The notes beneath the pieces were generated by a model. That model had not been told where the DNA came from and did not search any database. It was given only the letters and a program-made list of their open reading frames with translations. Shown here piece after piece: positions 36,204-36,433 of a stretch of DNA of 64,000 nt (the first letter of the stretch is position 1; the number at the start of each line of letters is the position of its first letter). The position numbers were made by a program, and so were the translations under genes. Source of the stretch: an uncultured Acidobacteriota bacterium (GTDB lineage Bacteria > Acidobacteriota > Vicinamibacteria > Fen-336); contig OY970399.1 in the NCBI GenBank assembly GCA_963720545.1, positions 2,502,908-2,566,907 on the forward strand, in the 5' to 3' direction.

Positions 36204-36217
36204 CAAGAAACACCCCC

Positions 36218-36250
36218 TAAAAAGCAAAAACCCCGAGGTTTCCCTCGGGG
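36218..36250 (-). terminator. Rho-independent terminator/attenuator hairpin immediately upstream of the ilvB RBS
   Basis: Minus strand reads CCCCGAGG-GAAA-CCTCGGGG followed by TTTTTGCTTTTT; it sits between the leader ORF and the ilvB Shine-Dalgarno. Confidence 0.6.
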
Positions 36251-36281
36251 TTCGCTGATCTTTCCGCCCGGCCTCTTTGGC

Positions 36282-36395
36282 CTAGATCACCGAACCCCCT
36301 CGCAGAGGAATGGAGATCAGGACCAGCAGCAGCAGGGACACCAGTTCCCGGGTCTGGGCCGGGAGCGCGGTGGCGAGCTGGTGGCGGTTGGACAT
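36282..36395 (-). CDS. candidate ilv-leu leader peptide (37 aa, Leu/Val/Ile-rich regulatory stretch)
   Basis: Minus-strand ORF MSNRHQLATALPAQTRELVSLLLLVLISIPLRGGSVI*; 11 of 14 consecutive codons are Leu/Val/Ile; located between the ilvD stop and the terminator hairpin ahead of ilvB. Confidence 0.55.
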   Translation of the reverse strand: MSNRHQLATALPAQTRELVSLLLLVLISIPLRGGSVI

Positions 36396-36433
36396 GACGA
36401 AGACCGGACCCTAACTCCGTGCCCGCGCGCTTG

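Follow-up and report, generated by a model that had tools for sequence, protein, structure and literature searches.

How the branched-chain amino acid genes are controlled from the short spacer between ilvD and ilvB is the question raised by this locus of an uncultured Acidobacteriota bacterium (Vicinamibacteria, Fen-336; assembly GCA_963720545.1, contig OY970399.1), in which seven biosynthetic genes, ilvB-ilvN-ilvC-leuA-leuC-leuD-leuB, follow that spacer on the minus strand. The locus was analysed within a 64-kb window, meaning here the whole stretch of 64,000 nucleotides. A previous sequence-only reading had proposed that the spacer carries a transcription attenuator, composed of a Leu/Val/Ile-rich leader peptide and a terminator hairpin. 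The computational tests available support this proposal through an antiterminator, conservation in relatives and the presence of the same build in 40 further loci, and it is considered very probable, on sequence and modelling grounds, that a classical ribosome-mediated leader-peptide transcription attenuator controls ilvBNC-leuACDB.

The minus-strand open reading frame (ORF) of 37 codons announced between the ilvD stop and the ilvB ribosome-binding site was found at 36395..36282, and the seven Leu, two Val and two Ile claimed for 14 of its codons are an exact count for codons 18-31 (L V S L L L L V L I S I P L), with all seven Leu encoded by CUG. When the six frames of the 64 kb were scanned, only two out of 107,568 stop-free runs of 12 codons contained at least ten Leu/Val/Ile codons, one of them being the leader ORF, and the sole (CTG)4 run on both strands of the window lies inside this ORF. 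Across the eight ilv/leu genes from ilvD to leuB, 22% of the codons specify Leu, Val or Ile. Profile hidden Markov models from Pfam and NCBIfam, run against five leader peptides, revealed no leader family at E values up to 10. The other run of 12 codons with at least ten Leu/Val/Ile is located at about 6869-6904 (-) and presumably corresponds to a transmembrane segment of a protein.

The GC-rich hairpin with a U-rich tail reaching the ilvB Shine-Dalgarno sequence, also part of the initial proposal, is present, with a stem that is longer (11 bp) than had been described. Its arms, GAACCCCGAGG and CCUCGGGGUUU, occupy 36253..36228 and are followed by UUGCUUUUU up to position 36219. The hairpin starts 28 nt past the leader stop codon and the U-tract ends 16 nt before the ilvB start codon, leaving a gap too small for a promoter; therefore, every ilvB transcript has to pass through the terminator. 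In a scan of both strands (128 kb) this hairpin was the most stable, and the sole canonical one, of nine terminator-like sites, and no same-strand site was detected between 36229 and 24910. The scan was fold-based; a finder that requires at least 6 perfect bp misses every terminator of the two-tier kind described below. Regarding the genes downstream, their identities were confirmed by NCBIfam, and the ATGA overlaps said to link them are found at five of the six junctions, whereas ilvN and ilvC are separated by a 14-nt spacer with its own ribosome-binding site.

An alternative antiterminator was looked for and found by modelling the pairings available to the leader transcript. Helix 1:2 (36324..36304 with 36299..36279) reaches -19.2 kcal/mol when isolated and is present in the full-length minimum-free-energy (MFE) structure. 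Helix 2:3, the predicted antiterminator, has -34.2 kcal/mol and is mutually exclusive with helix 3:4, the terminator (-21.5 kcal/mol). In the former, GGGGUUCG (36298..36291) pairs with CGAACCCC (36254..36247) and GAUCU with AGAUC, extended by CCUCU / GAGGG, in such a way that 12-14 bp (36299..36285 with 36261..36247) overlap the terminator 5' arm. A transcript ending before region 4 folds into 2:3. The region 2/3 duplex has a predicted energy of -30.4 kcal/mol compared to -15.7 ± 3.2 kcal/mol for dinucleotide shuffles (z = -4.65 to -4.86), and pairings as good were found in only two of the 2000 shuffles and in three of 9139 genomic 28-mers. When a ribosome footprint was masked with the A site at codons 20-26 (CUG CUG CUG CUG GUC CUG AUC), helix 2:3 formed in the model with -30 to -35 kcal/mol; with the mask moved to the stop codon, or to codon 30 and beyond, it covered region 2 and left only the terminator to form.

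These elements fit a model in which leader translation, ribosome stalling and regulated termination are the steps that we infer. Transcription would start at TTGACA-N18-TAGGGT, overlapping the ilvD end, and the 37-codon leader would be translated from an AUG located about 5-10 nt from the 5' end, without a Shine-Dalgarno sequence. If charged tRNA-Leu were scarce (tRNA-Val and tRNA-Ile to a lesser extent), the ribosome would stall in CUG CUG CUG CUG GUC CUG AUC, covering region 1, so that a helix would form between region 2 (GGGGGUUCGGUGAUCU) and region 3 (AGAUCAGCGAACCCC), sequestering the terminator 5' arm, and transcription would read through into ilvB. With plentiful amino acids the ribosome would reach the UAG inside region 2, helix 3:4 would form and transcription would stop at the U-tract. 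Without leader translation, 1:2 and 3:4 would form together and produce termination too, and the same hairpin would end ilvD read-through. According to the model, changing GGGGUUCG to CCCCUUCG would lock termination. Control by all three branched-chain amino acids, as first proposed, is thus plausible, but it would be unequal, as Leu predominates among the codons and Val and Ile are less frequent.

Conservation was analysed in three close relatives, L161, L162 and L163, which came from a protein-cluster search with IlvB; IlvB scans of GTDB genomes and JGI metagenomes gave identities of 76% at most, and the best other relatives, from Vicinamibacteria and other Acidobacteriota, show 75-79%. The leader ORF, whose conservation had been left as a point to check, is in frame at 96, 87 and 82% ilvB identity (Table 1), and JGI gene calling annotates the orthologous ORFs of L161 (37 aa) and L162 (35 aa). 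A 6-nt indel leaves the frame intact and the N-terminal codons diverge, whereas VSLLLLVL is identical at the nucleotide level in the window and the three relatives, with the position of the stop codon also kept. The four sequences are also identical over GUGUCCCUGCUGCUGCUGGUCCUG, regions 2 and 3, the terminator and the initial 11 bases of the U-tract (UUUUUGCUUUU), and past the terminator the sequence diverges again. The 1:2 pairing is maintained through G-U changes in L162 and L163, and the stem of the small hairpin located in the antiterminator loop is kept in the relatives while its loop varies (AACGA, AAGA, AGA). In L163, the same leader is placed behind a different, non-ilvD gene, meaning that the element goes with ilvB rather than with the 3' end of ilvD. 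In the IlvB relatives that come next (79%, Vicinamibacteria type), only 37-55 nt separate ilvD from ilvB, and this spacer contains neither a leader nor a terminator.

The ilvD-ilvB spacers of Vicinamibacteria relatives show very long hairpins of short tandem repeats (CAGCC/TCAGCC facing GGCUGA units) at L003:3896-3985, L008:3822-3965, L004:3838-3985 and L005:3782-3930. Their MFE values range from -54 to -83 kcal/mol (z -3.5 to -7), and they have no U-tract and no leader ORF. These hairpins may be repetitive extragenic palindromic (REP)-like elements or a different regulatory or processing device.

Table 1. Features of the ilvD-ilvB spacer and its surroundings in the window, and leader peptides of the three close relatives.
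Feature	Position	Strand	Description	Basis
Leader ORF	36282..36395	(-)	ATG 36395, TAG 36284..36282, 37 codons + TAG; peptide MSNRHQLATALPAQTRELVSLLLLVLISIPLRGGSVI	
Control codons 18-31	36303..36344	(-)	CUG GUG UCC CUG CUG CUG CUG GUC CUG AUC UCC AUU CCU CUG	
Region 1	36304..36324	(-)	GGUCCUGAUCUCCAUUCCUCU; 5' strand of the 1:2 anti-antiterminator, inside the control codons	
Region 2	36279..36299	(-)	GGGGGUUCGGUGAUCUAGGCC; last five sense codons + UAG; pairs with region 1 or 3	
Small hairpin	36270..36282	(-)	GGCC-AAAGA-GGCC; in the antiterminator loop	
Region 3	36243..36261	(-)	AGAUCAGCGAACCCCGAGG; antiterminator 3' strand = terminator 5' arm	
Intrinsic terminator	36219..36253	(-)	11-bp stem, GAAA loop, U-tract UUUUUGCUUUUU	
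ilvB Shine-Dalgarno AGGGGG	36213..36218	(-)	next base after the U-tract; ilvB ATG at 36203	
Operon ilvB-ilvN-ilvC-leuA-leuC-leuD-leuB	28344..36203	(-)		NCBIfam equivalog matches, junction sequences
Predicted -35 hexamer TTGACA	36432..36437	(-)	overlaps the ilvD stop TGA 36436..36434	sequence reading and conservation
Predicted -10 hexamer TAGGGT	36408..36413	(-)	18 nt past the -35, 12 nt ahead of the leader ATG	
ilvD	36434..38125	(-)	upstream gene, outside the attenuated unit	NCBIfam
Leader peptide of L161			MSIRHQLATALPAKTRELVSLLLLVLISIPLRGGSVI; ilvB identity 96%	
Leader peptide of L162			MSRQLAARASAQIRVVVSLLLLVLISNPPQGGSVI; ilvB identity 87%	
Leader peptide of L163			MPQQPLTAALSRAAVVVSLLLLVLVINPLTGGSVI; ilvB identity 82%	

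A conserved element of about 105 nt was also detected directly 5' of ilvB in 40 of 160 related (Acidobacteriota-type) loci; it is referred to here as the Terriglobia-type leader, as defined from loci L011-L154. Named assemblies account for 16 of the 40 loci, almost all of them from Acidobacteriota (Terriglobales, Acidiferrales, Polarisedimenticolia and unclassified), and the other 24 are metagenome contigs. In the element, a G-run (GGAGGG) is followed by an inner hairpin, GAGCU...AGCUC, and then by a C-run that doubles as the 5' arm of the terminator; the terminator itself has two tiers and leads into UUUUGCUUUUU. Counting the window with the 40 loci, 39 of the 41 leaders contain a short ORF; in most of these ORFs Val, Ile and Leu are clustered, making up 4-10 residues of the richest run of 12, as in ..HRIRVVVCRVRVLV.. 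and ..LEIVVVGLVRA... The ORF stop is located 65-80 nt before the U-tract end, within or adjacent to the inner-hairpin 5' arm, again in 39 of the 41, and it is UGA in 37 of these 39 ORFs, mostly within a conserved GAGCUGA. When the transcript is cut off ahead of the terminator 3' arm, each of the 39 distinct sequences has 7 nt or more of the terminator 5' arm paired to a stretch further upstream.

The window leader and the Terriglobia type are both placed directly 5' of ilvB, with the same order of elements, including the branched-chain-rich ORF and its stop in the 5' arm of the inner hairpin. They differ in the terminator (a single 11-bp stem in the window, a two-tier stem in the Terriglobia type), in the inner hairpin (GAUCU/AGAUC vs. 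GAGCU/AGCUC, a G-C to U-A swap) and in the stop codon (UAG vs. UGA). In addition, the window antiterminator (GGGGUUCG / CGAACCCC) has a longer perfect pairing, and the Leu-rich peptide of the window precedes an operon with ilvC and leu genes, whereas that of the Terriglobia type is Val-rich and precedes ilvBN only. When a covariance model was built from 38 other leaders, its top match in 92.8 kb (unfiltered) was the window leader at 36329..36219, aligned end to end with a score of 19.3 bits and an E value of roughly 0.002; the same model also matched the ilvB leaders of L161, L162, L163 and L147. An nhmmer sequence profile built without the window did not find the window leader. Thus, the window clade has the same architecture as the Terriglobia-type leader, of which it is plausibly a distant homologue. 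An nhmmer match of the window to the family (E = 8e-9) was rejected as circular, the window being in the seed. As a separate observation, an Acido-Lenti-1 RNA (RF01687, 59 bits vs. a threshold of 37) was found in the Terriglobia-type locus L012 (L012:6343-6388), about 110 nt past the ilvN end, at the apparent end of its short ilvBN operon.

The composition of the leader peptides was compared with the genes that follow them. In Terriglobia-type loci, ilvN alone follows ilvB, and neither ilvC nor leuA occurs within about 3 kb; the peptides of these ilvBN-only loci contain on average 2.7 Leu, 5.2 Val and 1.4 Ile, and two Leu are never adjacent in them. The operon of the window, like those of L162 and L163, extends further, to ilvC and leuA. 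Other leader-peptide attenuators of ilvB, each with a strong terminator, were seen at L147:2790-2962, L080:3567-3760 and L156:2715-2912, with peptides such as ..SSLVLSSLIIGLLTKG.. and ..VVVVVGLIISLLLVAQ(T/A); in L147, GGGGUGCGGG can pair with CCCGCACCCC, overlapping the terminator arm. These three leaders look independent of the Terriglobia-type family, and they precede ilvBN-leuA-leuC in L147 (no ilvC found), ilvBNC-leuA in L156 and an operon that reaches ilvC before the contig ends in L080. Leu occurs 5-9 times in the peptides of the window, L162, L163, L147, L156 and L080, and all of these except that of L147 have a run of LLL or LLLL. Such tracking of operon content by peptide composition is predicted by a translated amino-acid-specific sensor and not by an RNA-only switch or a chance ORF. 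The chances seem about even that these leaders form a widespread Acidobacteriota ilvB attenuator lineage, absent from Rfam and apparently undescribed, in which the codons were re-tuned (Val/Ile-rich for ilvBN, Leu-run-rich with the fused ilvC-leuACDB), translation is near-leaderless and without a Shine-Dalgarno sequence, and the terminator also closes the ilvD transcript.

The latter comparison bears on the possibility that the leader RNA directly senses a ligand, a protein or uncharged tRNA, as a riboswitch, a T-box or the target of an RNA-binding protein, the ORF being incidental. The ilvB or ilv-leu operons of other organisms use a Leu T-box or a ppGpp (guanosine tetraphosphate) riboswitch (ppGpp on ilvB: PMC10272879), and the 3' half of the window leader is 100% conserved at the nucleotide level, as a ligand-binding RNA would be. 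However, a sensor made of RNA alone does not predict that the peptide follows the operon, the stop codon is fixed inside region 2, and the conserved RNA consists of the three alternative helices alone, with no extra structured domain. Moreover, no Rfam family, the Leu, Thr, Trp and His leaders, T-box and riboswitches included, emerged at E values up to 10 in the window leader or in 12 family loci: the best match of Rfam 15 to the window leader was rnk_pseudo (Pseudomonas rnk leader), with 24 bits vs. a threshold of 55 and via the terminator only, and nothing else appeared at permissive thresholds in the window leader or in a family leader. At the gathering threshold, the whole window gave only a tRNA, and the 12 family loci only tRNA and Acido-Lenti-1 RNA, none of them in the leader. 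Direct sensing by the RNA is consequently regarded as improbable. The tRNA of the window is a tRNA-Gln (CUG anticodon) at 19227-19300 (-), which is the sole Rfam or ARAGORN match in its whole length.

Upstream of the leader ORF, the -35 hexamer TTGACA is invariant in the window, L161, L162 and L163, and the -10 is TAGGGT in three of these sequences and TAGCGT in L161; the spacer of 17-18 nt diverges, while the distance of the -10 from TTGACA is fixed. This promoter was not called by a strict sigma-70 scan, because its -10 only fits TAnnnT. The conservation suggests that TTGACA-N18-TAGGGT acts as the leader promoter, with a transcription start placed as in the model above, and the short distance between the -10 and the leader ATG implies a very short 5' untranslated region with no Shine-Dalgarno sequence. 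No terminator was detected between the ilvD stop and that of the attenuator, so transcription continuing past ilvD would reach the leader without its being translated and would end at the same hairpin. The hairpin is about 180 nt downstream of the ilvD stop and stop codons are rare in DNA with 67% GC, so that open frames are common; both facts would suit a plain ilvD terminator accompanied by a chance frame, with ilvB expressed by unregulated leakage. In contrast to what that explanation would lead to expect, L163 keeps promoter, ORF and terminator behind its non-ilvD gene, the short ilvD-ilvB spacers of the closest Vicinamibacteria have no terminator, the ORF is separated from ilvD by conserved -35 and -10 hexamers, the terminator arm is also part of a strong antiterminator, and the Leu/Val/Ile run would be roughly a 2-in-100,000 event; a plain ilvD terminator is thus very hard to credit. 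It is just as difficult to believe that the ORF is the gene of a small, functional, hydrophobic (membrane) peptide whose position upstream of ilvB is accidental, since, despite its annotation by gene callers and the conservation of the hydrophobic core LVSLLLLVLISI in four relatives, the hydrophobic stretch, with its 12-14 residues, is not long enough to form a transmembrane helix, conservation does not extend to the N-terminal half, the family peptides are charged and Arg-rich (such as RIRVVVCRVRV), Pfam and NCBIfam gave no match, and the C-terminal codons are conserved including third positions, which points to a constraint on the RNA rather than on the protein.

Further upstream, the 285-nt spacer preceding ilvD contains a tandem hexamer, (CGAAAC) x 5.3, on the plus strand at 38254-38285 (CGGUUU repeats on the ilvD strand), with a GCG x 8 run nearby (38382-38406).

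Some results weigh against a leader-peptide attenuator. CUG is not a rare codon, as it represents 52% of the Leu codons here and is the commonest of them. The leader AUG is not preceded by a Shine-Dalgarno sequence, so efficient translation of the leader is an assumption. The whole 241-nt leader folds no better than its shuffles (z = -0.31), which is expected for a GC-rich region and means that the signal is present only in specific helices. In the Terriglobia-type family, the antiterminator z is modest (median -2.0), because G-rich and C-rich strands pair easily, and shuffles were beaten in 38 of 39 cases; these values refer to alignment-defined regions, used instead of fixed offsets, which were uninformative (median z about 0). 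Finally, covariation was not measurable, with shuffle controls not exceeded and one double-sided change at most, because the family helices are almost invariant (94-96% paired vs. 26-61% in slid controls).

As regulation in Acidobacteriota is almost unstudied, the locus would provide a clean example of amino-acid sensing by ribosome stalling in this phylum. The Val-rich leaders of ilvBN-only operons and the Leu-rich leaders of leu-containing ones indicate how attenuator specificity may be rewritten with operon content. Adding these elements to RNA family databases would also prevent leader ORFs of 30-40 codons from being annotated as hypothetical proteins. The mechanism is a textbook one, so the conceptual gain is modest; the apparent Val-to-Leu re-tuning and the translation of the leader without a Shine-Dalgarno sequence are the most interesting aspects, neither of them being a conceptual surprise.

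Regarding known systems, a close parallel in design is provided by the enterobacterial attenuators, where leuL has four consecutive Leu codons and ilvL has mixed Leu/Val/Ile codons. The attenuators of leu (leuL), ilvGMEDA (ilvL) and ilvBN (ivbL) share with the window a short ORF with clustered regulatory codons, the 1:2, 2:3 and 3:4 helices and an intrinsic terminator just before the first structural gene. In contrast, the window shows no similarity to them in sequence or profile (Rfam, Pfam, NCBIfam), belongs to an acidobacterial host and has a leader AUG without a Shine-Dalgarno sequence. It also uses the common CUG, compared to a rare Leu codon in the enterobacterial case, and a single attenuator serves the fused ilvBNC-leuACDB, whereas enterobacteria have separate leu and ilv operons.

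A fused operon is also found in the ilv-leu system of B. subtilis, in which a T-box senses uncharged tRNA-Leu directly. In S. aureus, a leucine-rich attenuator peptide of ilv-leu works alongside CodY (PMC5794164). Both resemble the window in placing a fused ilvB..leuABCD operon under one mainly leucine-responsive attenuation device, but the window has no T-box according to the Rfam scans, unlike B. subtilis, and the S. aureus peptide is unrelated in sequence.

The ilvB leader of Corynebacterium and other Actinobacteria (ilvB-II motif) contains a branched-chain-rich upstream ORF and a three-hairpin attenuator (PMC10272879, PMC11857589, PMC1262725), and, judging from the title under which PMC10272879 cites Morbach et al. 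2000, the Corynebacterium leader peptide is made without a ribosome-binding site. The latter feature and the high-GC host bring this system close to the window, although it belongs to a different phylum, its operon is ilvBNC only, no sequence relationship is detectable and the window leader is unmatched by any Rfam model. Candidate upstream-ORF attenuators with branched-chain-rich peptides are also represented by the ilvB-OMG motif of marine gammaproteobacteria and the Leptospira ilvB motif (PMC10272879), whose published alignments (such as GUGAGUACCCUCAUCC... for ilvB-OMG, and AU-rich for Leptospira) are unlike the window leader. The three motifs, ilvB-II, ilvB-OMG and that of Leptospira, are all interpreted as upstream-ORF attenuators, as the window leader is here.

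In the literature, no acidobacterial branched-chain leader was found described, and the broad survey of Lopatovskaya et al. 2010 may cover the phylum. The sequence-only reading had considered the finding noteworthy on the basis that leader-peptide attenuation is mainly documented in Proteobacteria. That of ilvB, however, is already documented or predicted well outside them, in Corynebacterium and other Actinobacteria, Staphylococcus and Leptospira, besides the ilvB-OMG motif of marine gammaproteobacteria (PMC10272879, PMC1262725, PMC5794164). The phylogenetic surprise is therefore smaller than first claimed and the novelty was overstated. Compared with all these systems, the attenuator of the window is best regarded as one more member of a well-known kind, in which it may stand for a new family that has not been catalogued.

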